A stretch of 44,770 nucleotides of DNA from Catajapyx aquilonaris (lineage: Eukaryota). The stretch's first letter is position 1. Each line of letters opens with the position of its first letter. Made by a program: the position numbers and the translations under genes. Of the stretch, positions 3,540-44,770 are shown piece by piece. The DNA lies in NCBI GenBank assembly GCA_000934665.2, contig JYFJ02003244.1, positions 1-44,770 of the forward strand. The letters run 5' to 3'. The notes beneath the pieces are model-generated. The model searched no databases, had not been told where the DNA came from, and saw nothing but the letters and a program-made list of their open reading frames with translations.

Positions 3540-3946
3540 AGACTTTTGGCCAGTCAACCTCTTCTGATGCCTGCCCCATCATCACATCCTCCCATAGCTT
3601 CCCCCCATACTATGTATGGTTGTAGTCATTGCTAAGCTAAAAAGAAAACTGAGTGAGATGCCAGGGAGAGGTTTGTTAATATGTTTAGATGTAATAATAT
3701 AAAGTGGAAAGAACAAGCCTTTTTATTGACATGCTTTTGTGGGGGATCTTACAGTGCATTGGTAATAATAAACAATAATGTTAACCAGCTGCCTATTTAA
3801 GTATAGAGAGAGAGACAGAGATTCAATATGTAACATTTTGTATATGTGTATATTGTGTCAACTTGAAGATTTCTGCCTTGGTGGCTGCCTGAGACCAGCC
3901 ACTATATATTTTTTTCATCTTGGTACGTATTCAGATATGATTTGCC

Positions 3947-15164: not shown

Positions 15165-18100
15165 TCAAGAAGCACATACCTTCCTCAAGGTACCCTGGGA
15201 ACAAAAGGTACGTATGGCCAGCATCAGAGCCTCCCTTGGGTCCTCTGTGGTCTCTGCTGAATGTGGCATTGTGTTCCATCGGGCGGATGCTGATGACATA
15301 TTGGATTGGGGAGAAGTTGGTGACAAAATGACAGGTGGAGGTGGAGGAGGTGGAGGCAATGGTGGCTCCTCTGGGGATGGTTCTTGTTGCCTCCGCCTCT
15401 CATGATCTGCTCTCTGCTGAATGTACAGAATGCACAGTATGATTGTGTGTTGATCTGTTAGTCGTATGTGGGTAATTCACCTGTTCTAAATCATGCAATT
15501 GGCATTTAGTACATAAAGACTACCTCCAGTAGGTTATCAAAAATCTCCTGCAGTTTCTGCCTTCGCAAGCTTAGTTTAGACTAAAGCCCTACACCCGACA
15601 CGATGTGCAACAAGCTCACCTTATTCGCAGCACTAGCACTGAAGACATTCTGCGCACTGATGTGATTTCCAACCTTGCTCCCTGACCAGTTCACTCGAAC
15701 CACTGGAGCCCTACTGACCACAAACGATGGCTGAGGATTAGATGGTTGCAAAACAGGTGGTGGTTCCGGGGTTGCCACACGTGGTTCTGGTGTCTCCACT
15801 CGTGGTTCTGGGGATGGTGTTGATGGCTCTGGTTGCTGCCTCATAACCTCAGGCTGTTGCCTTGATGTTCCCAGGGCAGCACCACCGAGGACATAATCAC
15901 TGTCTGCCTTGAGGCTGACTACCCGTTTTGGCCTCTCATCCCACGAACCAAGTTGCACTGTTGGTGGTGTCCAACGTTGACTGACTCTGGCAGGTGGTGC
16001 CTCGGCTGTTGGTTTCTGTGCTTCTGGAGGTGCTGCTGATGACTGCAACAGGGTGTGGTTACGGAGCAGTTGCTGCTGCCACTTCATGAGCTCTTCCCGC
16101 AACTCACACAACTCTGCCTGAAGCTGGTCATCTTCCTCTTCTTTCTGAACAGCACCTTTCTTCGTTTCTTTGCTCTTATTGCGTGTTTCCGCTGATATGT
16201 TGTTCATGGCATTTTCAAGTGGAGGAGGATCTTTCATGACTGGAATGCTTGAGCTCTGAGGATTATCTACATGCTTCTTCTCCTTTACAACAGGTGAAGA
16301 TACAGCAGGGGTTATCACAGGTGGGGTTGCCATTTCTGGAGGCACCACTTGCGGAGGCACAACTACTGGACGCACAACTACTGGAGTGACCATAGGTGGA
16401 GGTACAACTGCTGGAGGCACCACTGGTGGAAGAGCAACTTGTAGAGGTACCTCCTCAACATGTGGTGGTGTTCCTTGGAGATGTTCCGTAGATTTCGTCG
16501 CTTTGGATGGTGGTTCTTCCTGTAGCACTTCTGGTACAGTGTGATTTTCGTTGTTGACATGACTATTGTCTTCTTCCTCTTGAGCAGCAGCCAACTGTTC
16601 CAAAAGGGCCTGCTGTGTCTGGAATCGCCTCAGTTCCAGTCCAGACCACAGTGACCCTTCCACTTCCTCTTCATTCTCTTCCTCAACTGTACCTTCCTCC
16701 TCCACTGGTGGCTCCTGACAACGATGGTTATCCTGGAATGGCGTTGGAGGCTCTGGAATAATGACTTCCTCCGTTTCTTCATCTTCCAATATGCTGCCTT
16801 CACCTCTTTCAACCACATTCACTTCCTTCTTCTCTTTGAGGGACCACACTTCCTCATCATCTACCTCCAAATCATCTTCTGGCTTTACATAACACAACAG
16901 TCCATCATGTGCACTTGCATCACTAACAACTTCATGGACCTCTGAAGGCACACCCTTTTCTTCCTCCTCTTCAACTTCTTCCTCTTCTCGATCACGCTGC
17001 TCTATTTCCTCCTCATCAGAGAATTCCTCACACTGCTCTTGAGTCTCTCGATCTAAATTGTGGGAGAAAAAAACCACATAAGCTTGCACATCCTTCTGAG
17101 TGGTGCTCATGTTCAAGCACAGTGAAGATTAAGTGCAGAAATAAGGAAACCTGATTCAGATTCAAGAGAAAAGAGGGAGTCGCATTCCCTTGCCCAACTC
17201 GCTTCATCATAATCATTGGTGCTGTTAGTAGTAGCAGTGGGAAGGAATATAGTGCGTCCTGGAGTGAAGGAACAAAAACATCTAAAGAAGTGTTAGTGTA
17301 CTACGGTACATGCTTTCCATCCACACACTGCATTAGTGGACCAAGAGCTTTTTTCCAAAGGGCAGGAAACAATTTGGATGCTCTTAAAGCATGAGTTATT
17401 ACCAAGGAAAATGTCAGATTACTTGTTTAAAAATTGCACTTTGGAAACAAGCGTTTCCCTGTGAAAATACCAAGGCCACAGGAAATATTACCAGGAGGAA
17501 CGGGTGGAGGGGGAAGCTCTGGAGATGCCTCCACAGTCGTGTGCACCACTGAAGCATGGGAATCTGCTACTGGTGGAGGTGGGGGTGCCCTTGACTTCTT
17601 CCTTGTTGCCAGTGATGCCATTGAAGCAGAGGAGGTGGTGAGGAGGCTGCTGGATCGTTGAGCATGCCTTACGGGTGGAGGAGGAGGTGCGTTTCCTCTG
17701 GCTCCTCCAGCAGTGCCTGCCAGGGGTGGGGGAGGTGGGGATGGGGAGGATCCAGCACCATTGACTGGAGAATCGCTGCTGAGAAGGGATGCCTCATGGT
17801 AGCCGCTGGAATCTGAGGACTGCCTGGAATGATTGGCCATCACCGGTGCGCCACCAGCAGCACCAGCTGGTGGGGGTGGGGGAGCCGGGCGCTTCTTGCG
17901 CCTGCGAGGGGGAGGTGATGGTGCCCTCCTTGGAAGCGTTGTCGGAGGAGTTGGAGATGCACTGCTACCACTTCCACTGTCGCTGCTAGCACTCTGAAAA
18001 AATATGGTCGATGTAAATATCCCAGTACACAAATGCCTTCCCACATACAGAACAATTCCACAATGATAAGGTGTTCACTAACCGACGCCACTGAAGCAGG

Positions 18101-19509
18101 TGGCCTTCTCCTAAGTGCCAGAAGGTCTTCCCTTGAAGCTGCATACAATCTCGCATCTTCATCCGCATCCGACTGCTCCGGAAGCAGGAGAAGGCGCTGC
18201 AAAGGCCCCAAAAGTGCATCTCCAGGAAGCCTCCTCCGAGGTTCCTCTGGAAGGCGAAGGGTGTACGCCCTTGCGTCCAGGCCCTTCTGGTTGCACACAG
18301 TGGTCAGAACCTCTGCCAGGGGCGTCTCCGGAGTCAACCTGAGGACGGCCATCTGCTTCCTTGGCAACAGCACCTGCAGACGGTGGGACTTGGCCACCAT
18401 GTGAGATGACATTGTGTTGGACACTGACGGCAGGGAAGGCGCTGGTCGGCGAGTGGACGTCCGTCGAGGCCTCAGCACCAGGACACAACCCGAGTCAAGT
18501 GTCCCAACTGGAGACGACGGCGCAAACGGCGGAGGAGTAATGCTGTCCTGTCGTCGAAGCTGACCGACGTACGCCGTGGGGCTCTGACCGTGTGCTGTCG
18601 CAACCTAATAAAAGACGTGTCCTTGTAGTTTCCCAGTTGGACAACCCCGTCCAGACAGTCACCTTTCCAACGCAAACTGCTGGTATTTCGTATCAAGCAC
18701 CCTGCACTTCGATACCTGACGTATCCGATAAGAGATATCTCAGGCGTCAACAGGATGACTTATCACCGATTATCCGCCTGCAACTGATGTAAATCCAGAG
18801 ATACATGCTCCAATTAACCGCTCAAGGGTCCTTATTGGTGCCAATAACAAGGTCGAAACCCGCGCTGTCTACACAGCCTTGTATGTCGATATGCTTCGAT
18901 GACCTATTGATTGAGAGGCCAAAAAAAAAGACGCCCATACCTCATAATTGCAGGGTGTACCTAAATATCCAGCAGGATTTAAACTCGAATGCATTAAACT
19001 TTATCGCCGTAGTAATCAGCTTCACTAAGCAATAATTAATGTGCACCTGACCTTGAGGTATGACAAGCAACATTGGAATGGGGGAGCTGGTATGCCGCCG
19101 CGGTGGGGAGGTAAGAGTAAAACAAATTACATGATGGCGAAGGTTACATAATGAAAAGGAAGTGGAGCGGGTTTTCAATTCAACATCACGATTTAATACT
19201 TTACGTGGCTACCGGTACGTTTCAGTGCGCCAGATCTAGATCCCCGATACGATGTGCAAATTGGGCGAGAACCATTTTTCACTGCAAAGTGAATGGCTAC
19301 TGGCGGTACCAACCCAGCGGGTTATTACCCAGTATAATGACCAGACAGTTAGTACCAACCTGCACCAAGACGTCCATCATTGGCATGGATCGTGGCACCC
19401 TGACCGCAGAAGTCTCCTTTTGCCATGGCAGCTCCACCGACACTTCCATCATGCCGTCCAGGTCTTCAGACGACGACGCCGACGACGCCCTCATCACTGC
19501 CGACGACAT
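15165..19509 (-). CDS. Cordon-bleu-like protein (N-terminal Cobl/ubiquitin-like domains, Pro-rich and acidic middle, C-terminal WH2; ~988 aa)
   Basis: Exons 19509-19360, 18604-18083, 17993-17492, 17258-17151, 17052-15620 and 15416-15165 (2967 nt, frame consistent). MMDVLVQVATAHG and HRLQVLLPRKQMAVLRLTPETPLAEVLTTVC resemble the Cobl homology region. KKRPAPPPP and KKSRAPPPP are KrRAPpPP-type motifs, and DPREALMLAIR..TLRKV is a WH2. The last codons are uncertain because of a possible donor at 15179. Confidence 0.8.
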
Positions 19510-26000: not shown

Positions 26001-26420
26001 GGATTACCAGGCCTTGAATAAGAATAATGTCGGTTGTTGGGTCCCGACAATGTCACCTCAGAGCCTCGTTATTTAAATGATCGATTAGGGCTAGGGGATT
26101 TATGGCGCATTAATTGCGGCGCGTCGCTGGATATACGCTGGTAGTCAATCAATGGGATTTGTCAATTGGCCGGATCAGAGGTGGCTAAAAATAGGTCGTC
26201 CCCGGCCGTGTCGTTACCTGTTATGGGCACCGTCAGTTCAGAGTTCGGGAATGATTCGATTTGTAGCAATTTGTGGGGGCAATCAAGGGCTTGTCCCCTG
26301 GAGGCCTGACCCGGCGCCCAAATTGAGCGTCGGTTTTTTCCTTAATAAGGCTGGTGGAATGGGTTGTTCTGTCGCCGGCAGGTGGTGAGAGGTGTGATCT
26401 ATAGCATCCGAGCAGTCAAG

Positions 26421-29400
26421 ATGACAATGCGGATGAGACTGGGTGCCGGCGTGAGTGGCGGCGACGCGCTCCGGCTCTTCCAGAAGTTCATTCGGACGAA
26501 GGACCCGGCGTCGCTGCAGGAGACTGACGAAGATGACCTGGGTGCTGCGGGCGGGAAGGGCCGCCTCAGGAAGTGCCTGACTGCCCTCGACCTCACCTCT
26601 CTCGGGGTTGGCAGCTGCGTGGGTACCGGCATGTACCTGGTCTCCGGTATGGTCGCCAGGAAGGTGGCCGGACCTGCAGTGGTACTCAGTTTTCTCATCG
26701 CCGCCGTCGCCTCCATTTTCTCCGGTACGTCATCCGGCTATGGGACGGACAAACTGATCTGGAGACGATGAGTGTTGCAAGGGTTGTCACAATGACAATA
26801 GAATCTCTTTAAAACTTGTTGCTGGGGCCCTTGCAACACGTAGTACTGCCAGCATTACTTTGTCTGTCGTATATGTTGAGTGTATTCTTGTATACATGTG
26901 AGAAAGAGCAGGTACCACGTGGTGCTTCTTCACCGTGTAGGAGCCTGCTACGCAGAGTTCGGGGTTCGAGTCCCGCACACGACGGGATCGGCGTACATGT
27001 ACAGCTACGTGACGGTGGGCGAGCTGGTTGCTTTCGTCATTGGGTGGAACATGGTGCTCGAGTACCTGATTGGCACTTCGGCGTGTGCATGTGCCCTGTC
27101 GGCATGCTTCGACGCCCTGGCCGACGGTGCCATTACCAGATCTGTGGGCTCCGCCTTTGGCACCCTCGCCGGTTCGCATCTCTACAGTTGTATATTCTCG
27201 CACTGCACCATCATATTTATACCAGTGTATATAGCCTGCAATTCACGTGCATGCACAAGACCAATCCGTCACGAGTCCTCAATCTGTAAACAGATATAGG
27301 ATCGCTTGGATTATTCATCCAGGAAAAGCTCTGTCGCCATTAACTGCACGGCATTCCATATCGTATGTCTTTCCATGTAAATTTAATCAGGTACAAACCA
27401 CTGACTTGTTCAAACTGTGCTGCCTTACAGTGGTACAATTTTTTGTGCCCTCTCCTCAGCGGCTCTGCTTTTCTTATTGACTTTGCAATGAAAATACTAG
27501 AGGTGATTTATTTAGAGTCGTCTTTCATGATAAACGAAACTGGGCCACCACCAATGCATTCAGCGTGTCCGCAATTGATTTTGTGCTCACGTAATCAACG
27601 TAAAGTTTGCTGCGTGTCTGTGGGATTCAATTCTCCGGTTGGAAATTCCCATTTCCTTACAGTTCTGCTGTCGTTTCTGCCTCAAGTATCAAAGCAGCGC
27701 AGAGCTTGAACTTGACGATATTGGCCTTATTATAAAATAGTGTTAGCAAAACTTTGCACATAAAATAGTAGTTATGCATGGCGCATGTCGGTTCCTTTCT
27801 GCCTCTCCCGACGGTTCAATACAATGATGTTCCGTCGTAGGGAGGCCGCCGGACTTTCTGGCGTTCGGGATCACGGCGGCTATGACGGCGCTTCTGGTGG
27901 CTGGAGCCCGGAAATCCCTGCTATTCACCAATGTGCTGAACGTCATCAATCTGGGAGCCTGGGTGTTTGTCATGACGGCGGGCCTCTTCTACGTCGACGG
28001 CGCCAACTGGAGCCAACACGGCGGTTTCCTGCCCTTCGGCTGGTCCGGAGTCCTGACTGGCGCCGCCACCTGCTTCTACGCCTTCATCGGATTCGACATC
28101 ATCGCCACCACAGGAGAGGAGTCGGTCAATCCTCGCAAGGACATCCCCTTAGCCATCGTAGGATCACTACTCATCATCCTCGCTGCCTATGTCACCACCT
28201 CCATGATGTTGACTCTCATCGGTACGTCTCTGTGCTCCAGAAGGTCCTTGATATGTTGATACCATCCAACAACTGCGTTTTCAGTTCCTTATGACCAAGT
28301 GGACACCGACTCGGCTCTGGTGGCCATGTTTGCTCACGTGGGGGCCCCTACGGCCAAGGCTCTGGTGGCCATCGGTGCACTGGCAGGCCTCTCCGTTTCC
28401 ATGTTCGGATCCATGTTCCCCATGCCTCGAGTTGTCTACGCCATGGCCAAGGACGGACTCATTTTCAAGTAAATGTCCTTGGTGTGCCTGCTGGACATGT
28501 GCTAATTGCTTGTATGTGCAGGAATCTGGCTCAGGTGTGGGAGCCGACTGGGACGCCGGCGGTGGCCACGGTCATCTTCGGCGCTGCGGCTGCCTTCGCG
28601 GCGCTTCTCATCCGGCTGGACATCCTGGTGGAGATGATGAGCATCGGAACCCTGCTGGCCTACACTCTGGTGTCCACCTGCGTGCTTCTCCTGCGCTACC
28701 AGCCCCACTCCACCACCTTGATCGACCTGCTTCCCGAGGCCCTGAGGACCCCCTGCCCTGGGAGCCCTGTCAGGGACGCCCCCGACGCCCGAGATCCTTC
28801 TTACCTGCTGGACACTGCCGCTGCTCACCAGCATCCTGCTGCCAAAGTGCGTAGCAGAATATACCGTCAATTAGGGGTGGTGGCTCGTCTGACGACCTGA
28901 TTTGTCTTTGGGCTCAGCTTGACTTCGGCGATTCTTCCGAGGTTCCTCAACTGGGACGACGTCCCAGTCAGGTGGCACAGATGGGTCCTGTCACAGTCCG
29001 CCGGGTCACCCGCTTCTCACCTGACAGCGACGAAACCACCCAGGTTTGTACATGGTCCTGGCCGGTGCGGTTCGCAATGGCGTCGTTGTCTTTTGGCCAC
29101 AATCGCGCTCGAAGACAACGACGCTCGTGCGAACCCAGCTTGACACTGGCATTGCAGGGCGACACCGACGCCGACGCCGAGCAGGATGACACCTACCTGG
29201 TCCGCGAACGAGGTGAGCCCACTTATTACGGCGGCACTGCTGGAGGAGGAAGCGCCGGTCGAGGGAGCATGGGCAGCAGCATCGGTGCCACTGGCATACC
29301 CATACCGGGTATCGGTGCTGTGGGTGGCGCCGTGGGGGGCGCCGCTGGGATAGCCGTGGGCCTTTGGGAGAAGCAGAACCGACTTCTCCAGCAGTATTTC

Positions 29401-29987
29401 CCCCGCTGGTTTCCCTGGATGCCCACGGGTCCGGCCACCGTGGAGTCCGGTCGGCTGGTGACCCGGCTGGTGGGCATCCTGTACCTCCTTATCGTGCTTC
29501 TGGACCTTCTGGTGGTGACAGGCATCGGCGCCCTAGAGCGCGGATCTGGAACCGCCGTCTTCTTCCTCCTGCTGCTGTTGGCTTCCATCATCGCCGTTCT
29601 GCTGCTCATCTCCAGGCAGCCGCAGAATCGCAAAGCCCTGCTTTTTCTCACCCCGGGGCTCCCCTATGTGCCCGCCATTGCCGTCACTGTCAACATCTAC
29701 CTCATCTTCAAACTATCCATACTCACGCTCGTCCGGTTCACTGTCTGGATGACTATCGGTAAGTACACCATTCTGCTGGTCATGTCCGAATATTTTCTTT
29801 TCAATTTCAATATGTCTGGGCAGGTTTCGCAGTGTACTTCCGCTATGGCATCAAGAACAGCACACTGGAAAGTCCTCAGGACCGAGATCAGTCTATGGAG
29901 CTGAGCGTGGCGTCGGCCATGGACAATCGCGACGCCCAGGACAAGACGAAACCAAACGACTACTACAACCACTTGTCCGCTCCTTGA
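26421..29987 (+). CDS. SLC7A14: SLC7A14-like probable cationic amino acid transporter (~771 aa, 8 exons)
   Basis: Exons 26421-26724, 26941-27171, 27841-28221, 28285-28468, 28522-28846, 28918-29043, 29158-29758 and 29824-29987 (2316 nt). [79 protein letters not shown] and the long cytosolic insertion before the last TMs are characteristic of SLC7A14. Confidence 0.93.
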
Positions 29988-32765: not shown

Positions 32766-35456
32766 ATGGGAGTCAGGTGGAGAATCGGTGGGTACAGCGA
32801 CGGTACAGTACCCAGTGACAGTTGGCCTAGTGCAGGATGGGTTGTTAACATTGATTTTCTGGCCAAGGACGGTGCACCAGGTGGCTAATGTCTGTTTGTC
32901 ATGGTCACTCCCATATAGGAATAGCCTGCTGTTATTAAAAAACTGCATGACGTATGCCAATCCAACTGTTTCCTTTTTTACAGGGGCGTTGGGCCTGCTT
33001 CTGTTCTGGGTTTTTATCCTGTACTTCTACATGGACTGGGGACAGCCGGAGATCACAGATAGTGCTTTCCATGCTGACCGACTGAGCTGGAAGGTGCCGG
33101 CCAGCACTAGTGATAATAAGACAGGTATTTTTTTTGCACTGACTCACCCCAGCCCAGAAGGTGAGTGTTCAAAAAAGGCGGGTGCCTCTAGTTCACTCTA
33201 ATTTGGTGCTTCAATCTTGCAGCATTGTTGGTGGTGGTCTCGTCTGATGGCACCTCTTTGGGGGGACTAGTCACTGTGGTCAACTCGGTCTTGAAACACA
33301 CACGACGCCCAGTCTTCTTCTGCTTAGCAGTCGACTCGGAAGAGACATTTGCCCATCTCCAGCGATGGTTCAGGCTTTCTCCAGAGTTGAGACGTGTTAA
33401 TTACACTGCCAGAATTTTCCCTCCGCAAAGAGCCAAGTCGTCACTGCCCGAAGTCTGTCCCGAAGCTGGAAAAAGGCGAGTCATATATCTTGACCGTGAT
33501 GTTGTTGTCCAGTCTGACTTGTCTAGACTGTATTCGGTGAAGATGGTAGCTGGTCAATGGGCAGTTGCAGCAGACGAATGCGCTGCCCCGTCTCGGCGAG
33601 TGTTTCCGCAGCCCGCTGCTGCCATATATGCGGGTCGTTTTAAGATGAAGGACCCAGCACTGATTGCATTGAAAATACCACCACAAGCATGCCTTTTTGA
33701 CACAGGGGTAATGGTGGTTGACCTTGCTGCCTGGAAGGAGAACAGGTTGTCGGACAGGATCAAGAAATATCAAGCGTTAGTAAATTCCCTGGGTATAGAA
33801 TTCCAGCAGCATGAAGTTTATATAACTGCATCATAGGAATAGGTTTCACCAGCTCTTGGTTTCACTAATACGATGATGGGAACATCCTCACTTGTGCATG
33901 TGTACGTAGGGGTCTTAGCTTCGGGTTGGGACTTGGGGGTGACATCAGAATGTTCATATTTCCTATTTGACTAACATCTTCTTGCGCTTGTTTAACCAAC
34001 CTAACATTCAGGCCCATTTATTCTACATGTGGAAGACATTTGCAGCAGGATCCAAACTCATGAACGGTGGAGGGGACTCCAACTCGTCAGCGCATTTCTG
34101 GCCCTTGACACAAGTGACTTCTCCATGCAATATACTAGGGCTTTCCAGTGTAAATACTTCATCAGAACAAAACTGAAGTATTATTTCTCAAACTAATTTG
34201 ATTCAGAATAAGGTCAAACATTCATCACAATTAGGCAGCGTGGTTCTAACTTCGACCCTAGGTGTCATTGTTTCTTACACAGTTCTTTTTTTGTTGACAC
34301 TGTTTACTCATATTGTTATGTGAGGGTATTGCCATGGAAAACTTAATGACGTAGGGTCAAAGTTAGGCCGGCCCGCCTATAACAGAAGCATTGTAAGTAT
34401 TGCAAAAATTCTGGGTGTTTTTTGCCAGCTTACCCTCTCTTTCATCTTTCATTTTGGGGTAGTGGTTCCAGTTGCGGGTCAATAGGCTTATCCTCGTAGA
34501 AGGACATGTGGTTGTCAGGCGATATGAGGGAGTGGATACAGAACTAAAGCTTAGGCTGTAGGCCACATACGTGCAGTGTGTTGCAAAATTGGGACGCTTC
34601 CTTTCGGGTATAGGTTGCATGTGATATTCAAAGACATATCCTACATTAGGCTACTTTGATCTTGGAGTGTTGCAATCATCAGTGGGGAAGTCCGTCGATT
34701 GAGCAACACCATGTAAGCATGTAGAGATTGGGTTGGATGCTTTAACAAAATTACAGTAGTATCCTCATTGCCACAAGAAAGTATGATTATGTTAATTGCA
34801 TTGTTAGTCCATATGTATAAAGTGGCCTTACAAACCTCTTCTGAACTGTGGGGGGTATTCATATACATTTCATTCAATTACTGATGCAGATTAACAAAAA
34901 ATTCACTTATGGATAACATGCATTTACAATAATACACTTTAACCACATATTCTACATGTACGTATACAATGCATTTTGCATGACGGTATTACACTATACC
35001 TAGGACATGACTTTAGCTCTCACGCATGTAATTGAAATAATGAAACTTCTATTACCACTCACATCTCTCCTTCCTCCAACTTGGCCCCCCGTCACTTAAT
35101 CAATCCATGTGCGCTAAGAGTAGGGAATGAATTAGAAAATTAAACTCTGTCTCCATTGCAGGAACCCTTCCTTCCTGGTTCGCCCAGACTCAGACATATC
35201 CTCAGCTGCGCTGCTGCTTGTGATGCATGACCACACTGCCCCACTGGACCCTCTCTGGAACGTCCGCAGCCTCGGACAGACCAGAAGCTCTATATACTCA
35301 CCATTGTTCGCATCCAAGGCCCATATCCTCCACTGGTCAGGTCACTTCAAGCCCTGGGGTCGGAAGGCCCCCTTTGCACACTTGTGGGACAAGCACTATG
35401 TACCTGACCCCACAAATAAGTTTAAGCCAATCAGAATCAACCTGAAAAAATACTGA
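32766..35456 (+). CDS. Glycosyltransferase family 8 protein, GLT8D1/2-like (type II membrane; ~345-348 aa, 4 exons)
   Basis: Exons 32766-32787, 32984-33160, 33223-33775 (or -33792) and 35162 (or 35188)-35456. N-terminal MGVRWRIGALGLLLFWVFILYFY anchor, VIYLDRDVVVQSD (DxD), FDTGVMVVDL..WK, LDPLWNVRSLG and ILHWSGHFKPW. The first exon and the last splice junction are inferred. Confidence 0.85.
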
Positions 35457-38433
35457 AAAGGGAATGTCTGGAGAAGGGGAAAGCGAGGAGGATATTTTTT
35501 ACACTTTTAAAATAAAGGTCTTCCCAATTTTCTTTCTCATTTCTTTTTTATCTTTCTCTCATAAATCGCTACTTTTTTCTTCATCGCTCAATTTGCGGAG
35601 TAACACAAACACTTGCAGATTCAATTTGTTTTTTGGCATTTTTGTATTTTTTACCTCATAAAGACAGGACCCTCTACCAAACAAAAAAAAACGTGATTTG
35701 TCAAGGGAAAACAATTATGGCTGTTTTTTAATATTTCTCACAACTACACAAGTGCTTAACTACAATCAAAATAAACTGGCTTTTTTCCGTTAGTAAAAAG
35801 ATGAACAGATTTTACTCAACTTCCATAAGCAAGTAAAAGTCCAAGACAAGGGATGTGGGATTATTATGCATGTGTTTTAAAAGTCAGGCCAAAATCGGAG
35901 GAATGCATTGTTGGCTATCTTCAGTCAGAACATATTTAAACAAAAAAAAAGCAGACTTATTATGCAACTATGCTTGAAGGGCGGTTATGTGATAATGGGG
36001 TGGGTGTCAGGTGAGGAGGGGCAACAACATGCACTCCCAACTCATTCACTCATTCATTCACTCAACCTGTCAACTGCCCTAACATTAGGTTTATAATGCC
36101 CTTTTCTGGGGGTGCACCGGGAGCAATAAAACAAACATTATGCAGGTGAAAAATCGCCTCTCGCACTATTATGAGGTCACAATTGACACTCAAAATTTTG
36201 CCCAGCTTCCAAATTAGCAGGGGTGTCGTCTTAACCACATCAGGCTATAACCTTTATGTCACAACTGCATAAATTTCAAAATAAGCCAGCATCCCTGCTA
36301 ATCAACTATCGAAAGCACTTTCCATGGACCAATCATTGATAGAGGTCAGTTCTAAATCACACAGGCAAAAGAAAAAGAAAAAAAAAAAAAGTGTGAAGCT
36401 TTGGAAGGTAGGAAGGAGAAATGGAATTATTCATTTCCATATTTTAAAAAAACACGACACTGCTCTTCTTAAAAAACACCACACTAATTGCACGAGAGAG
36501 AAAACATTCTTTTGGGCGTGGGGGGAAATAACTGTGTGTGTAGCCAGGTCACAAATTCCTCAACATGCCAGTCCGCATATTTCTCTCCTTGCTTGCTCTC
36601 GAAGTATTGCTAGTTGAAAATAAGTTCTTATAATTAACCAGCCAAGAACAGTGGACTGGGAAAAACTGAGGGCAATTATACCAACACTTCTCACCCACAC
36701 ATGGAAATATGGGGAGAGGGATACACTTTTTAGCTATAAAAAGAAAAAAAAATACTCCCATTCCTTCTTCTCTCCCTCTTGCTTCCAATCTTAAATCTGG
36801 TAGATTCTGTGTGTCCTTTTTTTTTTTTTCAGGTGCTGCCAACCTCCATTTTGTACACAGCCTGCCAAAATAAAGAGAAAGTGCATAAGTCCCTGTGCAT
36901 GATAATCCATGAACTTGCATTTAAGAATTGTTGGATAATATTCTTCTTATGAGTCAGTCTTGTTAACTACTTAGACTTTCGAGTACCTAATACTGCTATT
37001 ATTGATATTATTGTGTGTTCACATTATCAACCTCTTATTCCAGTCTTAGGGACCATACTGTGATTTTACGAACTTCTCCCATATTGTTGAAGCCTTAGGA
37101 ATGTGACCAATTATTGTCTTCACACATTCATATATCACATTATTGTAATAACATTAGGGACCTGATTATATCAAAGTGATTCTAAAATATGTAATGAATG
37201 TAGACAATCAAATAAAATCTTCCACTATGCAAAATATTCTAAATACTTTATTCCCATTAAAAAGTGCAAGTTTATTGTGCCACAACATGTCTGAACTAAA
37301 TCAAGCAACTATCACAAAAACATGTCCAAGACAGTTTTTCTTTAAAGCATGAAGGGATGGAACAAGGATCCTCACACAGAAGGTGCGAAATCCATAGATC
37401 CCTCCCTACCTTGCATATTCATTCCTGGTGCATAGGCGCTTGATAATATCTATTAGAACAGGGAAATGCATGGGGCTCCTCTGTTTCTTCCCAGCAAAAA
37501 ATCAAGCGGCAGTGCAGTCAATGAAATTATTTCCTGTTCCAAATGGCCATGGCATGTGCTAGGAACCAGTGAAAATTTCAATTCCATTTTTATGGCACTC
37601 CTAGATGTTGCCAAATTGTTAAAATTTGTGCACAGTGCAGTCTTACAGGCAATCTTTGGTCAGGAAGCAAAGATATGTTTACATGAGCACCATTTCAGGG
37701 GACAAGTGAACATTGTGAGGTACCCCACTCCTTATGGATTAAACCAGGCAAAACACATAGCCAGCCATGTTTTCCATGCTCAAATTGGAGTACGGAAGAA
37801 GATGGAGAGGTAGAGGGCAGGGCTAAGCACAGGTCAGCTGGTGAAGATCCTGGCCACACAGAGATGACCTATGGCCAAGAACTACCCTGGCCACACATTC
37901 TGTGAGTGGATCTAGGGATCCCTAATGCTGACATTTACTGAAGAACTTGACAATGCAAGACTGGTTACATTCTTTAAAAATTATGTATTGCGGTAATTCC
38001 GAATCGAGAATATTTTTAATTTACAAAATTGTGACTCCTGAACAGTTGACAAACCTCGCCTGGCAAATATAACTCTTTCTAGGATGTTAACAAGCGCTTA
38101 TGCACCAAAAATCTTGAAAAATAATGATTCAAAGAGCATTACCAACAGATTTCCTATCTTACATAAGATCATTTCCCTGCAAGAAATCAAAACAAGAGAA
38201 TACTCCTGCATGTTATGGACATTGCCACCTTTTCATTTAAATTTCAGAATAGACAGAAGCAAGTGTGACTAAAACTGTGCAATGCATGCATCAAATTGTG
38301 TTTTGGCACCTGGACCAATTAGCATCTGCTCCCTTCATGGCTTGCACTTTAAGCAACTAAGAAAAGTAGAGAATTAAACTCACTCTTACAAATAATAATA
38401 TTAATTTTAAAAAATTCAGGTACGAGAGGAGGC

Positions 38434-41400
38434 CTAATGAGTGGCAGCAGCCTCCTCCCGGCTGGTGTCCGTGTTATTGGTAGCAGCAGCTGGGCTGGTC
38501 TTCTGCTGTGGCTCCTCTGCTTTCTTCTCTTCTCCATCGGCAGCAGCCTTCTGGCTTCCATTCTGTGAGGGGGCCTTGGTATCACTCTGCTGTGGGGGCG
38601 TTGTTGGTGCCACCGAGTTGGTCGTTGCAACTGCAGTGGTCGCCTCCTCTGCTGGTGTTTCCTCCACTCCATTGGACTCTTTCCCATCTTCCTTGACCTC
38701 GTCCTTCATCTCTTCTTCATCCTTTGATTCCTCCTTGTCTTCTTCCTTATCTGTCTTTTCAGGTGATTTCTCATTGTTAGCAGCAGTGGCAGCATTCTGA
38801 TCTTTACGTGGACGCCCCCTCCTCCCACTACGAGGAGTTGTCCCAGTTGAAGAACTGGATGATGCAGAGGAGGAAGATGCCTTCCTCTCCCGCTTTGCTG
38901 GTGGGGGAGGAGCTGCCAGCGGAGTGCCACCACCACCTCCACTGCTGCTCCTGGTTGAGGAACGTGTCTGCCTACGACCCTCAACTTCTGTCCCTTCAGC
39001 CTCTCGATGGCCCAACTCCTTCAGAAGGGCCTCTCCTTCCTGGGCAGCCCGTGCAAGGGTGGAAACTCGCTTGCCAGAGCTGCGCCGAGTCTTGCGCTCA
39101 TCTGGCTTGGCTTCCTCCTGGCAGGCCAAATAAGGAAGAAGAGAAAAGAAAACCATTAGTTAAGCACCCAGATTTTTGAAACAGGTAACAATGTCACAAA
39201 CGAAGTTCCTGGGCTGCACTTCCCACCTGTTGGTGGCATCACAAATGTCAAGTTGCAGAAAAAACTACAGACTCTTCATGAATATTAGACTCTTGTGCCA
39301 CTTACAAAAGTGCCACCTTAGCCTCAAATCCATGATAGTCATTGGTGATTTCCTCTGCAACGGCATTATTTCCTCAGACAATCTGTAACACAGTGTTGGT
39401 GTTGCTGAACCGCAATGGGGTGAGGTTAGCTTCGTATATGTGCCAAAAAGGGACCAGCTACGCAGAAAGTTCTAATTTCAAGATGTTTAATAACATTCAC
39501 CACAGATGATACATGTTTACAATCAAATATATTGATCATGTCATCAAGCACATAAATATTCTACATGGAATGATCTCTAAAATGCCATAGACAGTCTCCC
39601 TTTGACATCAACTCGCTTGGCTTACAATACTTCAATTTTGGTGCATTCTGCTGTAGACAGTACAAGTCCACAACAGTTGCTAGTGCTACAGGTTGGCCAA
39701 AGCCAGAGATTTCATTCACAACATTATTTCTTCACAAGGTCTCCTTGCTGTACCTGAGCCTCTTCCTCCCCTTCAAAAGACTGGAGAAATGCAGCTCCTT
39801 CCTGCAACAGACCTTCCTTTAGTCATCTGCCAACACGGCCATACAAATGACAAACCTTGGCCGTGGCCTGCATCGTCCCTTCCCTACGTGCCTTCGACGG
39901 GGAGCCCGCCTCCGTCCTCTGAAGGAATTCTGCACCTTCCTGCATAACCAACCTTATTTAGCAAATACCTCGACATATGCAGCCTCTTTAACAAACCTTG
40001 GCAGTAGCTTGCATGGTCCCCTCCCTCCTCAACTTTTCTGGAGAGCCAGTCTCCTTTTCTTCCATCCTTTGTAAGAATGCTGCCCCTTCCTGCATGATAA
40101 CCTTTCAGTGTACCTGTGTCTGATCATACTGCCATGTTGATAACTCAATTCATACAAATATTGTAACTAATGAGGCATATTCTTGATGCAAGTGAAGATT
40201 ACAATTCAATATTGTGAAAATGATTGTGGCCTGGATAGCTTGTCAGAACAGGCAAGTTACAACACTTGTATACTGAGCAATCAATATAAACAAACCTTGG
40301 CTGTGGCCTGCATGGTCCCTTCCCTGCTCATCTTCCCTGGGGAGCTAGCCTCCTTCTGTGGCACCCCATCCTGCACAAACCAACCCATAACCGTAAGGCA
40401 CATGCTCAAGGACAGCCCTTACAAGCCAACGAACCTTGCTTTGAGATGAGTCCCCTTCCCTGCGAACCTTTGCTGGAGGACCTTCATCCCTGGCCTCCAT
40501 CCTCCGCACAAATTCTGCCCCTTCCTGCATAATAACACTTTATAGAGTAGGCCTTTACCAGTCAGCCATTTCACAAACCTTGGCTGTGGCTTGCATAGTC
40601 CCCTCTCTGCTCATCTTGGCAGGAGAGCCAGCTTCTTTGGCTTCCATTCTCTGCAGGAATTCTGCCCCTTCCTGCGTAAAATTCCCATAATTGCTATAAT
40701 GTACAACATATGCGACAAAAAATGGCCGCAAGTTCAAACCTTGGCAGTGGCCTGCATGGTTCCTTCCCTGCTCATCTTTCCAGGAGAACCTGCCTCTTTG
40801 GCTCCCATCCTTTGCAGAAACTCTGCCCCTTCCTGCATTAAACCAATCCCCCTTTATGCAACAGACAGTGGCACACAACAGCTGATCAGATCCAAGCAAG
40901 TGCCATACCCAAGCATAAAACCAAGGCCAGTGCAACCAGGAAAACCAAGTAATATAGCTTGTTTTCGCAATCATTTTTGTAAAAAGCCCAAAAGCAGAAA
41001 CCCAACATGGGGAAATAAACCTTGGCTGTGACGGCCATTGTGGACTCGCGAGACAGTCGAGTCGGAGGCTCCTCCTGGCCACTGTCTTCAACGTCACGAG
41101 CCAGAAAGGAGGCACCACTGGAGCGAAGGAACTCGAGGCCCTCCTGAAAATTGTCTCTTTACATTCTAGGAGCTTCTTATCATGTCCATTAAAATACCTG
41201 CCATTTACTACCAGGCCTTAAATAATATTGACTGACAATTCAATTGAATACATATTTAAAACACAGTTGGAATCGTATCAACACAGCCATGCTTGATTAC
41301 GCCATTCGAATGTGTACAATATAAATTTATTTCTGAATGTAGAATCCTATGAAGTAACATTCAATCATTTTATGCATGACCTTCACATAATACGGATAAC

Positions 41401-43680
41401 CTTCTCAAAGATGCCACCAATTCTAAGTGATAGGTCAGATAACGTGGACTACTCATTGCAAAGCACTTGTATTAGTAGATTAGATTGATTAGCAAGCACA
41501 AATTTTAGAAAGTCTTCACCCCAATTGCAGCCAGCAGATAATCTGATAATGGAATATCCTAACCCTTCTCAATAATTTACCAATTGTCTTTAATTTCAGA
41601 TGTGAAAAAATATTTCTCATCTAATGATACAGGGCTCTTTCCTTATAAAAGAACAATGAATGGTTATAATCAATATCAAGATTACGTTAAGTTTTAACGG
41701 AACTTCCGCCAGCCTTGGATACTTGTAGGTGATTACCAGAGGCCAATCTCACTTTGTATGCTCTGAACAACCTGTAGAATTAGACAAAATACCGAATCGT
41801 GATATCAGCTGACAGGGTTGGTCTACTTTTGAAGTCAATAATTTTTTTTAAAGGAAGAACTTGCAATTTTCAATTAATTTAGAGTTGTTGTTGAGCGTTA
41901 TCAGCAGCACTTTTTGGAATGGATATTCCCGAGTGATGCAAATATACTGTTAAACAAAAAAAAATTACAATTTTATTGGTGTCTAGTTAAATTAAATCAT
42001 AATTTGACATTCAAGCCTGAATTCCAAATGGCAGTGCAGGGGTGGATGTGCACACTCAATCATGCACCCCCATTGGCTTCCAGGTCATTACAGAACTCTG
42101 TCTCATTAGCTTTGCCAGTAAATTGCGATCAGTTCCAGATCAGCTGGGAAGGGATTTCTTATACTTTGGCTTGAAACCCACTCTTCATTCAAATGAGATC
42201 AAAGTAACTGCTGCGTTTTCCAGGTACTGCCTAGGCCAGAAGTTCTGTTAAAGCAGAAGGCACTTATTGGCTGTGTTGCATTGAGTGCACACTTGTTGAA
42301 AAATATATATAGTTAATCTTGTCTATGACCAAAGCTGTACACAATACACAACTTTCCATCATTAAAGTCTTCGGACTCCAACAGGTGATTTTCAGTGCAA
42401 AAAAAGCTCATGGGAAAGTAACTCCATTATACATAGGTTTCATTACATATGCAAAATTATCCAGCCTTTGGTCTAATATCCCCTATTACAATATAAAATT
42501 AAGTTATACATTCCCAAGACACCAGGTGCAATCTTTCCCAGTCAGAATTAATTCTTCGACAATAAAAACACAAAGGCTTCCCATGGCTACTTCCTGGTAT
42601 AAATATGTCTAATTTTAGAAGCCAAAAATGAACCCAGTCTAAGTAATAACACTGTAACAGCGACAGGCTACCAAGAGACGAATTACTCCTGGTCATACAC
42701 AAAAAATGTGAAAAAGTGAAAGTCACACTCTTTAAGATATAATACACACTTGCTTTCAATCAATATCAGCATTGATAATGTAATCTTGATATGCCAATGA
42801 CAAATACATCAATAAAATCTGAAGGGCAAAGCTGCAGAAAGAAATTAAATATTTTCGATACGAAGAGTTGGGATTTTATATTATGTAACACGAATAAAAC
42901 ATAATTTACCATCTGCGCACAAAAATATTAGCACTAATCTATAACTACAAAATTTTCTATGACGGCGACATTACATAAATTCACAATATATTTTGGATAA
43001 TTTTACCTCAGTCAAAGGGATATTTGGCCTTTCCTCATTATATTTAAGTATACTCAAGCAGATGTCATCAAATCTGTGCCAGGTTTCAACTGTAGACAGT
43101 TTAAATTTAACGCCAGCTGCGCAGCAAGCTTGAGTTTTGATATCCTCCCTTACCTGGGTCTAGTAAGCAAGGTTGTTGAACTCAATGACAGCCCATTACC
43201 CTCTTACATCACCCCTCTGAGTTTGGCTCCCAAAAATGACATGTCACTACCCTTGCCCAAGAAACCCATTTATATCCCTTGCATTCCAAGTAGGTGGGGG
43301 GAAAAAAAGAATAGAAAAAAAAGAGTAAAATGTACACGAGTAAACTTCCGTCGGCTGCCACGGGAAGGCAGCACCACCGCGCAATTTTCCCTCCCTTTTA
43401 CGCCATTCTCGACCCCTGACTCCCACCCCGCCCAAGTAGCCACTGCCCCACAGCTGCCCGCGGGCCGCCCCCACCAGACGCGGGCCGCCCAACCGCCCGA
43501 GCTACATTTCCCCCGCCAACTGCGCGTTTCGAACAAGCACAACTGAACAGTTGAAGGTCGGCCAGGCCTACGTTCGATTAAATGGTTTTGGCTCAAACAT
43601 GTATGGAACAAGGGTTGTTTCACCTTGGCCGTGACCTCCATGGTGTTCTCCTTGGCGAGCTGGGTCCTCTCCTCAGACAT
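38434..43680 (-). CDS. Uncharacterised repeat-containing AT-hook protein (~479 aa, 10 exons), probably chromatin-associated
   Basis: Exons 43680-43624, 41143-41021, 40832-40740, 40671-40579, 40524-40435, 40370-40296, 40089-39997, 39939-39856, 39801-39754 and 39117-38434; all introns are GT-AG phase 0 and no exon has a premature stop. RRGRPRK AT-hook at ~38803-38823, followed by an acidic/Ala-Thr tail. Confidence 0.8.
39754..41143 (-). repeat. Tandem array of eight duplicated phase-0 exons
   Basis: Recurrent + strand blocks AAACCTTGGC(T/A/C)GT..C.TGCAT.GT.CC and TGCCCCTTCCTGC correspond to minus-strand ...GCCAAG|gttt donors and gcag|GAAGGGGCA acceptors. The intervening introns are not similar to each other. 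Confidence 0.9.
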
Positions 43681-43739
43681 GGCTAGGCTGGATCTCCTTC
43701 CTTCCCTTATTTCCGACGGCAAGTCCACCTCCCGAACGG

Positions 43740-43850
43740 CCTCGACGGTTTCTGCCGAATCCAAGATGGCGGGTGGCGTGGTCACGTGACCTCCCCTTCC
43801 CCCCCCCCCCCCTTTTTTTCCATCCCCCCTTCCCCTCCTCCCCTCGGTGG
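43740..43850 (-). promoter_or_regulatory. Putative promoter of the AT-hook gene (YY1-like site, palindromic E-box)
   Basis: CAAGATGGCGG at ~43762 and GTCACGTGAC at 43781-43790, about 80-110 bp upstream of the ATG in a CpG-rich patch. Confidence 0.5.
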
Positions 43851-44282
43851 TCTGACAGGTTGCAGTCAGGGCCTGGTAGCGACATCTGTGTGCGGGTGTC
43901 GGAAGTGGGTGAAGGGAGCGAGAGAGCAGGTGCTTCCTGGTGGTCAATGTCAAAACCAGCTCGGGGCTGTAGGGTGCGTGGAGGGTTGCAGGGGCAGAAG
44001 GGGACGCGCTTCTCTTCACAAGTTGGGATTGTTGGGGCTCTGCAGGGAATGATGGAGTGTTACAATTGATTTACAAATGTCAACAATCAGAGTATTAACT
44101 CAAGGCTACTGGCATCAGAAGCAATAATATTGTATAAGTTATTCTCAAATTTTTATAATGACTATTTGCACATATGATGAAACCTTGCTGCTCAGGTAAG
44201 CTATTTAAAATAGTAAAAATACAAACTGATATTTTAGGGAAGAGTATAAAATTATATCCTACAAGAAGATAAAAACGTTGCA

Positions 44283-44377
44283 TGGAATTTTCGTCCCACT
44301 GCTAGTTACTGCTAAAACTTAGCAGTGCCAGTGCCAGTGCTTAGTTAGCAGTAACTAGCAGTGGGACGAAAATTCCA
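44283..44377. mobile_element. ~100-bp palindromic MITE-like element, copy 2
   Basis: TGGAATTTTCGTCCCACTGCTAGTTACTGCTAA...TTAGCAGTAACTAGCAGTGGGACGAAAATTCCA has perfect 33-bp arms; same family as 13040-13147. Confidence 0.88.
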
Positions 44378-44770
44378 CATATTATAATTTGAAGATTTTG
44401 TCAGGTAGCGTGTGAAATGATTCCCCTACTAACACACACAAGATGAAAGAATTCCCCATTCAGAGGCAAATAACAGGGATGGTCCCATACACGCTTTGCA
44501 ACATTGGAGTCAAAGGACCCCGAAGTAGGCTAGGTTGACAACCAGGGAGAGGTGCAGTAACGAGCCACTCCGAAGAAAATAACAGTGATTAATAAAAGAA
44601 CCACCCTCTTTATATATAAAGTGGGCGGTTCACAATAGGGGTTTGCACAAAAAGCTGTGGGAGGAAACAGTTCTTCCGCTCCAGGCAATAAGCTGGTTTG
44701 ACTGAGGCACAGAAGCATAAAGAGAGGTTTTGCTGGTGGTGGGGGTCCGGGTTTGGGGGGTACATGGAGG

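Follow-up and report, generated by a model that had tools for sequence, protein, structure and literature searches.

An exon array in Catajapyx aquilonaris that rebuilds a short motif across splice junctions and belongs to an unnamed animal gene family

The microtubule-binding repeats of tau, MAP2 and MAP4 are 31–32 residues long, end in a conserved P-G-G-G and are encoded at about one repeat per exon; whether 3- or 4-repeat tau is made depends on a cassette, the 93-nt exon 10 of tau. In the multi-repeat beta-thymosin/WH2 proteins of invertebrates, short helix-forming docking units are strung along a disordered chain, and their copy number varies between species and isoforms. By analogy, the product of the gene described here would resemble the tau group as a disordered protein with ~31-residue binding units counted exon by exon and with in-frame cassette exons, and would resemble the beta-thymosin/WH2 proteins in its disordered array of short docking units that form helices. 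There is, however, no sequence likeness to tau, MAP2 or MAP4 and no Pfam match, tau repeat model included, and the exon border falls here inside the motif. Its motif also differs from that of the beta-thymosins, where L-K-K-T-E-T follows the helix, and neither the Thymosin nor the WH2 model of Pfam matches.

The window is the whole of contig JYFJ02003244.1 of C. aquilonaris (44 770 nt). A 10-exon gene with a product of 479 amino acids occupies its minus strand from 43680 to 38437 (Table 1). Nine phase-0 exons lie between 43680 and 39754, with AG/GT borders where the initial annotation had put them; the eight exons listed there were recovered on the minus strand with the same positions, lengths and translations, and for all of them the lengths are multiples of 3 and the ends are in phase 0. 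AG precedes 8/8 internal exons and GT follows 9/9 exons (E1–E9). With exon 10 counted, the gene has 9 intact donors and 9 intact acceptors, and its exons are free of internal stop codons. The introns measure, in order from exon 1, 2480, 188, 68, 54, 64, 206, 57 and 54 nt. Upstream of the ATG, the two elements of the promoter-like stretch, which may be E-box and YY1-like sites, are surrounded by a G+C-rich patch (GC = 0.62 over 43681–44000). The exons are genuine, and the gene codes for a mostly disordered protein whose animal family, which has no name, ranges from sponges to acorn worms.

Table 1. Features of the ten-exon gene and its flanks (positions in the window)
Feature	Coordinates	Strand	Remarks
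Promoter-like stretch	43763..43788	-	CACGTG 43783-43788 and GCCATCTT 43763-43770; 90-108 nt upstream of ATG
Exon 1	43624..43680	-	57 nt, ATG at 43680 to donor; MSEERTQLAKENTMEVTAK; front half of motif 1
Exon 2	41021..41143	-	123 nt / 41 aa; counterpart of cassette exon in mollusc and hemichordate relatives
Exon 3	40740..40832	-	93 nt; repeat unit EGAEFLQRMGAKEAGSPGKMSREGTMQATAK
Exon 4	40579..40671	-	93 nt; repeat unit
Exon 5	40435..40524	-	90 nt; divergent unit, last residues REGDSSQSK
Exon 6	40296..40370	-	75 nt; unit without EGxxFL half
Exon 7	39997..40089	-	93 nt; repeat unit
Exon 8	39856..39939	-	84 nt; repeat unit
Exon 9	39754..39801	-	48 nt; EGAAFLQSFEGEEEAQ; back half of last strong motif
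Seven short introns between exons 2-9	39802..41020	-	
Exon 10	38437..39117	-	227 aa; stop TAG 38434-38436
Possible polyadenylation signal ATTAAA	38015..38020	-	416 nt past stop; pattern only

The conserved unit that spans the junctions is ~18 residues long and reads [LVM]-x-[RK]-x-x-T-M-x-x-T-A-K-E-G-x-x-[FL]-L; its family-wide form is [LVM]-x-[RK]-x-x-T-M-x-x-T-A-[KEQ]-E-G-x-x-[FL]-L. A motif HMM was made from relatives only (186 motif instances out of 122 relatives), the instances being chosen by a strict pattern, so that T0, T4, E7 and G8 are fixed by construction. In the spliced product this HMM found the motif rebuilt at seven junctions, as had been proposed (7 matches, 30–39 bits); the arrangement goes beyond chance. 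All seven strong matches cross a junction (after residues 19, 60, 91, 122, 177, 208 and 236), and in each a phase-0 intron directly follows the TAK codon; unspliced single exons match as half motifs only. The junction between exons 5 and 6 has no motif because exon 5 ends in REGDSSQSK. The further claim that the repeat is built only across splice junctions holds for the seven strong copies and fails for an eighth, a degenerate copy lying whole inside exon 10 (5 bits). Scanned in six frames, the window gave 7 exon matches at E <= 5e-15 and exon 9 at 0.011; no additional copies were found in the whole window, the remaining matches being noise (E >= 1.6). Tandem Repeats Finder reported no array over 39500–41400; the repeat is therefore hidden at the DNA level. 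Five S-P-x-K sites occur in the linkers between repeat motifs.

The gene is a member of an animal family that lacks both a name and a Pfam model and whose proteins carry several copies of this motif. A profile of the exons matched 5 of 1.84 billion representatives, three of the five with the motif; a search with a coral family member gave 40 matches, and a search with the family profile gave 136 at E <= 1e-3. Among the 120 listed of these 136, the named relatives are molluscs, echinoderms, the hemichordate Saccoglossus, cnidarians, sponges, nemerteans and annelids, and none of the 120 bears an arthropod name. With exon 4 as query, a 5.8-billion-sequence collection yielded no protein in which these exons are joined. 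RefSeq members are called 'uncharacterized protein' or carry misleading automatic names (nucleolin-like, hmg-12-like, CHZ1-like, caldesmon-like). That the repeat is not a named domain, as first suggested, was borne out: none of the 8 window pieces matched a Pfam family (E <= 1), nor did exon 10 and 4 relatives (E <= 10), and among 20 spliced relatives no Pfam family is common to more than 2. Text searches of the literature turned up no paper on the family.

This gene shares with its marine invertebrate relatives the motif, its N-terminal register, the phase-0 intron after TAK and a 41-aa exon 2. In 17 of 20 aligned relatives the first motif occupies a shared N-terminal register, with its Thr near residue 13; exon 1, which reads MSEERTQLAKENT(13)M, matches that register with its Thr at residue 13. 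The usual family protein is 200–320 amino acids long and has 1–7 motifs (mode 4) separated by long variable acidic linkers, whereas this gene has 7 strong copies, the family maximum, at a 31-residue spacing produced by duplication of one exon.

Cnidarians and molluscs have the intron after TAK in common with this gene. Genomic ORF fragments from Pomacea, Mytilus, Acropora, Montipora and one more contig match the protein as far as TAK, TAS, TIE or TAE and then continue with Val (GTN), and four of the five canonical motifs in genomic contig L003 have GT right after AAG. The 123-nt exon 2 of L003 aligns with exon 2 of this gene, as do segments of 41, 38 and 49 amino acids that are absent from Pomacea X3, Aplysia X2 and older Saccoglossus models, respectively. 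As judged from these sequences, the split motif is not peculiar to this gene and is the family's ancestral gene structure.

To assess selection on the exon copies, the four best-kept repeat exons (E3, E4, E7 and E8) were compared in all 6 pairings by the Nei-Gojobori method. Synonymous change has reached saturation (pS 0.62–0.81) and replacement sites are kept (pN 0.03–0.14), with dN/dS of 0.01–0.08 in the 4 pairs for which dS could be computed; these four are therefore old, selected coding exons. Constraint is looser in pairs that include the divergent E5 or E6 (ratios 0.13–0.87; E5–E6, 0.87). Exons 5 and 6 being degenerate, some units have not been kept.

The explanation that we favour, and hold to be probable, is that of a family member encoding a largely disordered, multivalent docking array on the ancestral split-motif gene structure. 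In that structure the phase-0 intron lies right after the TAK codon, and each internal exon closes one motif with its back half, continues through a linker and opens the next motif with its front half, so that a duplicated exon brings in a complete motif and a skipped one takes a complete motif away. In this lineage, one internal exon type would have been duplicated long ago to give exons 3–8, with a short linker that usually carries S-P-x-K. Each motif would fold into one helix on a conserved partner, and the protein would therefore act as a multivalent docking array. The array is probably phospho-regulated at the S-P-x-K sites and at the invariant Thr, whose surroundings (R/K at -3, hydrophobic at -5) we take to be a kinase consensus, the protein would be nuclear, and the AT-hook-like tail could tether it to DNA.

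Splice-tuned motif number in this gene, as envisaged in the initial annotation, is plausible because the motif is split, the intron is shared and relatives have one-exon isoforms. In its full form, this reading holds that the repeat exons are cassettes and that skipping, under regulation, decides how many motifs a molecule carries in different tissues or stages; it is a serious possibility to which we nevertheless give rather less than even weight. All internal exons are phase 0-0, and any subset of them could be skipped in frame. In RefSeq, isoform models differ by exactly one TAK/EG-bounded exon in Pomacea (247 versus 206 aa) and Aplysia (224 versus 186), the same is true of two Saccoglossus models (239 versus 190 aa), and the Oculina X2 model drops the 12-aa front half of a motif; these are, however, annotated models, and the exon that relatives skip corresponds to exon 2 of this gene, outside the duplicated series of exons 3–8. 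The seven repeat-exon donors (GTTTAT, GTTTGA, GTTTGT, GTTCGT, GTTTGT, GTTTGT and GTTTGT) are non-consensus, with T at +3 in 7/7, and AAG/GTTTGT, found in this gene, recurs at two of the four motif introns in an unrelated contig. Acceptors of the short introns end in ..TGCAG (6/7) or, ahead of E4, in ..CGCAG, and have no pyrimidine tract, the pyrimidine fraction at -23 to -4 being 0.30–0.55 in the seven short introns versus 0.80 before exon 10. Mean pairwise identity among the seven introns is 0.51 at the donor (+3 to +10) and 0.53 at the acceptor (-12 to -4) versus 0.27 in the interiors; the intron ends have thus stayed alike despite the saturated synonymous sites of the neighbouring repeat exons. 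Such splice sites are consistent with regulated skipping, but weak-looking sites may be normal for 54–68-nt introns under intron definition, and the strong protein constraint on E3, E4, E7 and E8 suits constitutive use equally well.

The helical character attributed to the repeat at the outset is matched by the AlphaFold model of a Lottia relative, in which one continuous helix is predicted across T-M-x-x-T-A-K-E-G-x-x-L-L. Predicted helices in this protein (10–28, 57–71, 112–123 and 195–220) lie over the motifs, mean pLDDT is 64.7 and pTM is 0.18; an ESM Atlas model has a pTM of 0.14. For the exon 4 unit, AlphaFold gives two half helices (2–13 and 17–29) with a break at A-G-S. Confidence in the helices of these two AlphaFold models is only moderate (block pLDDT 53–87). 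The models thus predict isolated helices over each motif without a global fold, and the protein looks disordered. On a helical wheel, 4/4 alignment motif blocks place R-3, T0, M1, T4, A5, G8, F/L11 and L12 in an arc of 140 degrees; overall conservation has a weak helical moment (0.09–0.17) because charged positions are conserved as well. Could the seven close units instead make up a stable alpha-helical repeat domain or bundle, packed through the conserved face? Helices of ~27 residues, broken only at G-S-P, would succeed each other every 31 residues, and conserved small or apolar residues have an a/d/e-like spacing (positions 1, 4, 5, 8, 11 and 12). We regard such a bundle as unlikely: AlphaFold packs no motif in the Lottia relative, and the motifs of relatives are far apart on their long variable linkers and differ in number. 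No solved structure matched the family profile. Its alignment to ALKKNATMLYTAS--QAFLRHPDVAATR in the M-domain helix-turn-helix of alpha-N-catenin, of the alpha-catenin/vinculin type, would favour a bundle, but is not significant (E 0.6–0.9 against PDB) and requires a two-residue gap that shifts the helical register; kinship was rejected in favour of chance or convergence.

The head of exon 10 contains the unsplit degenerate motif KRVSTLARAAQEGEALL (39022–39072), followed by EGRRQTRS (38959–38982). The order of elements is the same as in a mollusc relative, KRGVTIAKTVEE/AKFML..NEGRRTRSQS, where a degenerate motif likewise precedes EGRRTRS. The family also has a T-R element following a motif (..G-x-T-R-x-E-T or K-T-R-G-Q-Q), of which the K-T-R-G-Q-Q type was not seen in exons 2–9. 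The canonical C-terminal motif of relatives, E-G-x-E-F-L-K-R-x-K, and their basic tail are absent, and in their place this protein has gained a Ser-rich stretch, an AT-hook-like GRRGRPRK (38803–38826) and a long, acidic, Ala/Thr/Pro-rich tail; in all, ~195 residues follow the degenerate copy. The earlier label of a chromatin protein would draw on this single GRRGRPRK. As in HMGA proteins, a basic R-G-R-P core is followed by an acidic tail; unlike there, where several copies are usual, the element occurs once, and it has no Pfam AT-hook match (E <= 10). A [KR]GRP string was present in only 1 of 59 proteins scanned, 2 of the 59 being unrelated repeat proteins. A transcript that ends after exon 9, with exon 10 belonging elsewhere, would have a product (~260 aa) that fits the usual family length; if the exon 9 donor is not used, the frame closes 9 codons on (..VQQGDLVKK*). 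Given that the head of exon 10 has family elements in family order, EGRR(Q)TRS included, and that exon 10 joins exon 9 in phase 0 after a good pyrimidine tract, we find such a mis-joined model improbable, and equally so an unexpressed relic, which the degenerate exons 5 and 6 might suggest but which is at odds with the intact donors and acceptors and the open exons.

It is very improbable that the units are surface-seeking amphipathic repeats of the apolipoprotein, synuclein or LEA type, serving membrane binding or stress protection and not protein docking: the tandem helices with G-S-P punctuation are A/K/E/T-rich and disordered alone, and T-A-K-E-G is, as we read it, locally like the synuclein core K-T-K-E-G-V, but no synuclein, apolipoprotein or LEA model of Pfam matches (E <= 10), the period is 31 residues and not 11 or 22, motifs are far apart in relatives, and the residue-specific conservation (invariant T, T, E and G) points to a specific partner.

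Between sponges and corals at one end and echinoderms and a hemichordate at the other, the motif has been kept residue by residue, yet neither a Pfam model nor a solved structure covers it; in a disordered protein, such conservation usually marks the docking site for an important conserved partner. More tentatively, we suggest a split docking motif that predates the cnidarian–bilaterian split, in which the exon would be the unit of gain, loss and skipping and would serve as a valency-setting device for an adaptor protein, one that vertebrates and arthropods may have lost. Skipping would join a front half and a back half that come from different motif copies, and unusually weak, conserved splice sites together with the split motif would amount to a built-in valency setting of a widely conserved adaptor. 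Exon duplication, of which this gene is an example, would let the valency of the docking array evolve, and exon skipping, as in the annotated snail isoforms, would let it be adjusted. The family would thus offer a tidy natural test case for how function depends on the number of motifs, and a profile model and a name would keep its members from being annotated as nucleolin, caldesmon or a Salmonella protein.

The window gene is a minus-strand gene of ten exons spanning 43680-38437. The eight exons proposed in the initial annotation (123, 93, 93, 90, 75, 93, 84 and 48 nt) are correct in length and in translation; AG precedes each internal exon, GT follows each of exons 1-9 and all lengths are multiples of three. 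The introns between exons 1-9 measure 2480, 188, 68, 54, 64, 206, 57 and 54 nt, and with exon 10 the spliced product comes to 479 residues. If the donor of exon 9 is unused (39727-39801), the frame closes nine codons on (..VQQGDLVKK, then a stop), which would give a product of roughly 260 aa, a typical length for the family, without the AT-hook-like tail. Pattern matching alone places CACGTG and GCCATCTT within a patch of high G+C upstream of the ATG, and ATTAAA 416 nt downstream of the stop; a G run of >12 nt lies at 43800-43830 (-), within the presumed promoter or 5' flank. Position 3180 is the only N of the window. Neighbouring genes occupy 4651-9130 (-), 10230-12185 (+), 15581-18604 (-), 26349-29904 (+) and 33192-35456 (+); one encodes DnaJ plus thioredoxin, two encode amino-acid permeases, a Pro-rich gene weakly matches a Raf-like RBD, and a glycosyltransferase family 8 gene is convergent on the 3' end of the window gene.

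Features of the window gene and exon borders at the motif intron in relatives (a slash marks the point of read-through; L003 is a metagenome contig carrying a relative's gene)
Feature	Sequence	Coordinates	Length	Strand	Details
Exon 1	Window gene	43680-43624		(-)	ATG to donor
Exon 10	Window gene	39117-38437		(-)	Phase-0 join to exon 9; pyrimidine-rich acceptor
GRRGRPRK (AT-hook-like)	Window gene	38803-38826		(-)	In exon 10
Stop TAG	Window gene	38434-38436		(-)	Stop of exon 10
Read-through at motif intron	Pomacea				T-A-K/V-C and T-A-K/V-R
Read-through at motif intron	Mytilus				T-A-K/V-I
Read-through at motif intron	Acropora				T-I-E/V-G
Read-through at motif intron	Montipora				T-A-S/V-R and T-I-E/V-R
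Read-through at motif intron	One further contig				T-A-E/V-G
Exon 1	L003				Ends M..T-A-K, then donor GTTTGT
Exon 2	L003		123 nt		Then donor GTACAT
Exon 3	L003		156 nt		Then donor GTATGG
Exon 4	L003		150 nt		Then donor GTTTGT

The repeat was described by an HMM of a motif of ~18 residues, [LVM]-x-[RK]-x-x-T-M-x-x-T-A-[KEQ]-E-G-x-x-[FL]-L, built from 186 distinct instances in 122 relatives; four of its positions are fixed by construction because the instances were chosen by a strict pattern. Applied to the spliced product, this HMM detects seven motifs (30-39 bits), every one across an exon junction, and single exons score as half motifs; the claim that the motif is rebuilt at seven splice junctions thus holds. 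Family members carry 1-7 copies at ≥10 bits (mode 4), with the seven of the window gene at the top of the range; coral genera differ in copy number too, with five by pattern count in Pocillopora and six in Oculina. The Thr of the first motif stands at residue 13, in exon 1, a register shared by 17 of 20 aligned relatives, and exon 2 (41 aa) aligns with the E-G-I-x-Y-L-K-x-x-G-K-x-x-L-L-x-x-Q-G-L..T-M-x-x-T-A-K of molluscs and Saccoglossus. The head of exon 10 (K-R-V-S-T-L-A-R-A-A-Q-E-G-E-A-L-L .. E-G-R-R-Q-T-R-S) follows the order found in molluscs, K-R-G-V-T-I-A-K-T-V-E-E-A-K-F-M-L .. E-G-R-R-T-R-S. The canonical last motif and the basic tail of the relatives are absent from the window gene; in place of the last motif, exon 10 has a Ser-rich stretch, GRRGRPRK and a long acidic Ala/Thr/Pro tail. 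When the N-terminal 91 residues were used as a phmmer query, coral proteins of 278-322 aa ranked first, but the score rises with motif number, and the ranking was therefore not read as a sign of taxon.

Exons 3, 4, 7 and 8 were compared in six pairs (Nei-Gojobori). Synonymous differences are saturated (pS 0.62-0.81) while pN is only 0.03-0.14, so the copies are of old date and were maintained as protein. Four pairs allow dS to be computed, and in these dN/dS is 0.01-0.08. Exons 5 and 6 are looser (pN up to 0.44; ratio of 0.87 for the pair): the former has lost its T-M-x-x-T-A-K end and the latter its E-G-x-x-F-L start. Tandem Repeats Finder reports zero arrays in 39500-41400 and an Rfam scan of 37000-44770 no match. 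Scanned in six frames with the exon profile, the whole window yields seven units at E ≤ 5e-15, exon 9 at 0.011, and beyond these noise only. The repeat is visible in the protein frame only. We have little doubt that this is a real gene and a member of the family.

A search of 1.84 billion representative proteins with a profile built on the seven exon units yielded five matches at E ≤ 1e-3. The motif is uninterrupted in three of them (e.g. L-K-R-D-S-T-M-A-V-T-A-K-E-G-E-A-F-L), and one motif-bearing match represents an uncharacterised Pocillopora protein cluster. The coral protein as query retrieved 40 relatives, and a profile of 20 relatives, over protein lengths of 91-415 residues, gave 136 matches at E ≤ 1e-3, 120 of them listed. 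Named members among the 120 come from bivalves, gastropods and a chiton, from sea stars, sea cucumbers and crinoids, from Saccoglossus, and from stony corals, sea anemones, an octocoral, two sponges, two nemerteans and two annelids; there are no vertebrate or arthropod names among these 120 matches (lengths 91-415). P0059 and P0123, clear family members, stand in NCBI under 'Salmonella sp.' as hypothetical proteins and are probably mislabelled eukaryotic sequence.

The initial annotation recognised no named domain, and Pfam likewise has nothing for the exons of the window gene, exon 10 included. The listed relatives have no precomputed Pfam domains, and when 20 members were scanned against Pfam directly, no shared family emerged. 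The automatic names of members (nucleolin-like, hmg-12-like, CHZ1-like, caldesmon-like, eIF5B-like) are composition artefacts. In the literature text no relevant paper was found with the motif strings or locus names, the matches to 'TAKEG' being names only, such as Takegawa and metaKEGG. The family appears to be undescribed.

Several other leads were set aside. Two exon-profile matches, P0001 and P0002, have other repeats, without T-M-x-x-T-A-K. P0002, a 208-aa metagenome protein, carries A-D-A-A-F-V-R-R-M-x-x-K-E-S six times. This sequence is similar to the second half of the unit in the window gene (E-G-A-E-F-V-R-R-M-E-A-R-D-E) but comes without the T-M-x-x-T-A-K half; P0002 may be a relative or a chance likeness. 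A 41-aa read-through query from exon 4 yielded two word-sharing protein candidates, neither of which scored. The best PDB matches are at chance level, both by sequence (P-glycoprotein linker, E 0.76) and by family profile (YraP, E 0.18; alpha-N-catenin, E 0.6-0.9). The last is a weak, non-significant resemblance to ALKKNATMLYTASQAFLRHPDVAATR in the M domain of alpha-N-catenin, with a 2-residue gap, though it spans most of the conserved motif positions. The ESM Atlas gave no usable feature match for the Lottia relative. For exon 10 it pointed weakly to arthropod DUF4775 clusters (score 0.92, recognition below the bar, four of the ten best matches sharing a family), a lead that was rejected because Pfam itself has no match to exon 10.

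The position of the intron within the motif can be followed in the relatives. Prokaryote-style ORF calls on their genomic contigs agree with the mature protein as far as the residue preceding E-G, after which they read Val (GTN; see table). Intron DNA of a relative's gene is shown by L003 (9.7 kb), in which internal exons begin with E-G or E-A directly after AG; in a degenerate motif there the intron is in phase 1 and lies one base downstream. The last motif of L003 sits undivided within the final exon; in Pomacea and Crassostrea the last motif is likewise undivided. From L003 and the read-through borders, an internal exon therefore opens with the second half of one motif and closes, after a linker, with the first half of the motif that follows. 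To judge from these sequences, the split-motif intron is the old gene structure of the family and not a peculiarity of the window locus. The long intron of the relative's gene in L003 also holds a tandem array (3545-3854) with a period of ~66 nt, which is a minisatellite since T-T-K-T-S-P-A-E-Q-Q-K-P-H-P-L-N-N-K-N-L-T-R is read in all three frames.

The donors after exons 2-8 are of the AAG/GTTTGT type (GTTTAT, GTTTGA, GTTTGT, GTTCGT, GTTTGT, GTTTGT, GTTTGT). T stands at +3 in all seven, a position at which metazoan donors normally carry a purine. The repeat-exon acceptors lack a pyrimidine tract, the 20 bases upstream of them being 30-55% pyrimidine versus 80% before exon 10. Among the introns between exons 2-9 (39802-41020), mean pairwise identity is 0.51 and 0.53 at the ends and 0.27 in the interiors, and the ends are thus alike although exon synonymous sites are saturated. 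This points to selection for these weak-looking splice sites, which would suit regulated exons. Alternatively, such sites may be the local norm for short introns of this genome. GTTTGT is the donor at two of the four motif introns of L003 (965-971, 2998-3004), an unrelated contig.

Annotation models of relatives differ in units bounded by the same borders. Isoforms X1 and X3 of Pomacea (247 and 206 aa) differ by 41 residues and X1 and X2 of Aplysia (224 and 186 aa) by 38; the Saccoglossus models (239 and 190 aa), which are successive models and not declared isoforms, differ by 49. In all three the missing piece fits exactly between T-A-K/E-G borders and is the counterpart of window exon 2. Oculina X2 is without a 12-residue motif front half, ending at T-A-K/E-G. 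For the window gene itself, copy number tuned by splicing, as the initial annotation suggested, is possible though somewhat doubtful.

AlphaFold2, with a 20-sequence alignment as input, predicts the Lottia relative without a global fold (pTM 0.18, mean pLDDT 64.7; the ESM Atlas model has pTM 0.14) and places a helix over each motif (10-28, 57-71, 112-123 and 195-220), unbroken through T-A-K-E-G, which fits the description of the repeat as helical. In the window exon 4 unit two helices are predicted, 2-13 and 17-29, interrupted at A-G-S. From the two predictions, the spliced unit is therefore expected to form a ~27-residue helix per junction, punctuated by G-S-P. Numbered from the Thr before Met (T0), residues R-3, T0, M1, T4, A5, G8, F/L11 and L12 fall within 140 degrees on a helical wheel in all four motif blocks; charged positions are conserved as well, which keeps the helical moment of overall conservation low (0.09-0.17). 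Of the 186 instances, 181 have L/V/M/I at position -5 and 185 have R or K at -3, which is the spacing of basophilic Ser/Thr kinase sites. S-P-x-K, the full CDK consensus, occurs in five of the seven repeat linkers, and molluscs have S-P-A-K-K-A-K-L at the matching place.

In our preferred reading the motifs would act as a multivalent array of helices that fold on binding and dock on a conserved partner, with phosphorylation as the switch; in the lineage of the window gene, the AT-hook-like tail perhaps tethers it to DNA. We hold the docking mechanism to be an evenly balanced proposition and put forward a chromatin role for the protein only tentatively. In working principle the nearest known cases are the tau/MAP repeats and the multi-repeat beta-thymosins, disordered proteins in which binding valency is set exon by exon; Pfam scans of the exons, exon 10 and the relatives give no sequence membership in either. 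The observation in the initial annotation is confirmed and its interpretation partly supported. What is new is the motif family, together with the split-motif gene structure that it conserves, not the principle of cassette repeats.
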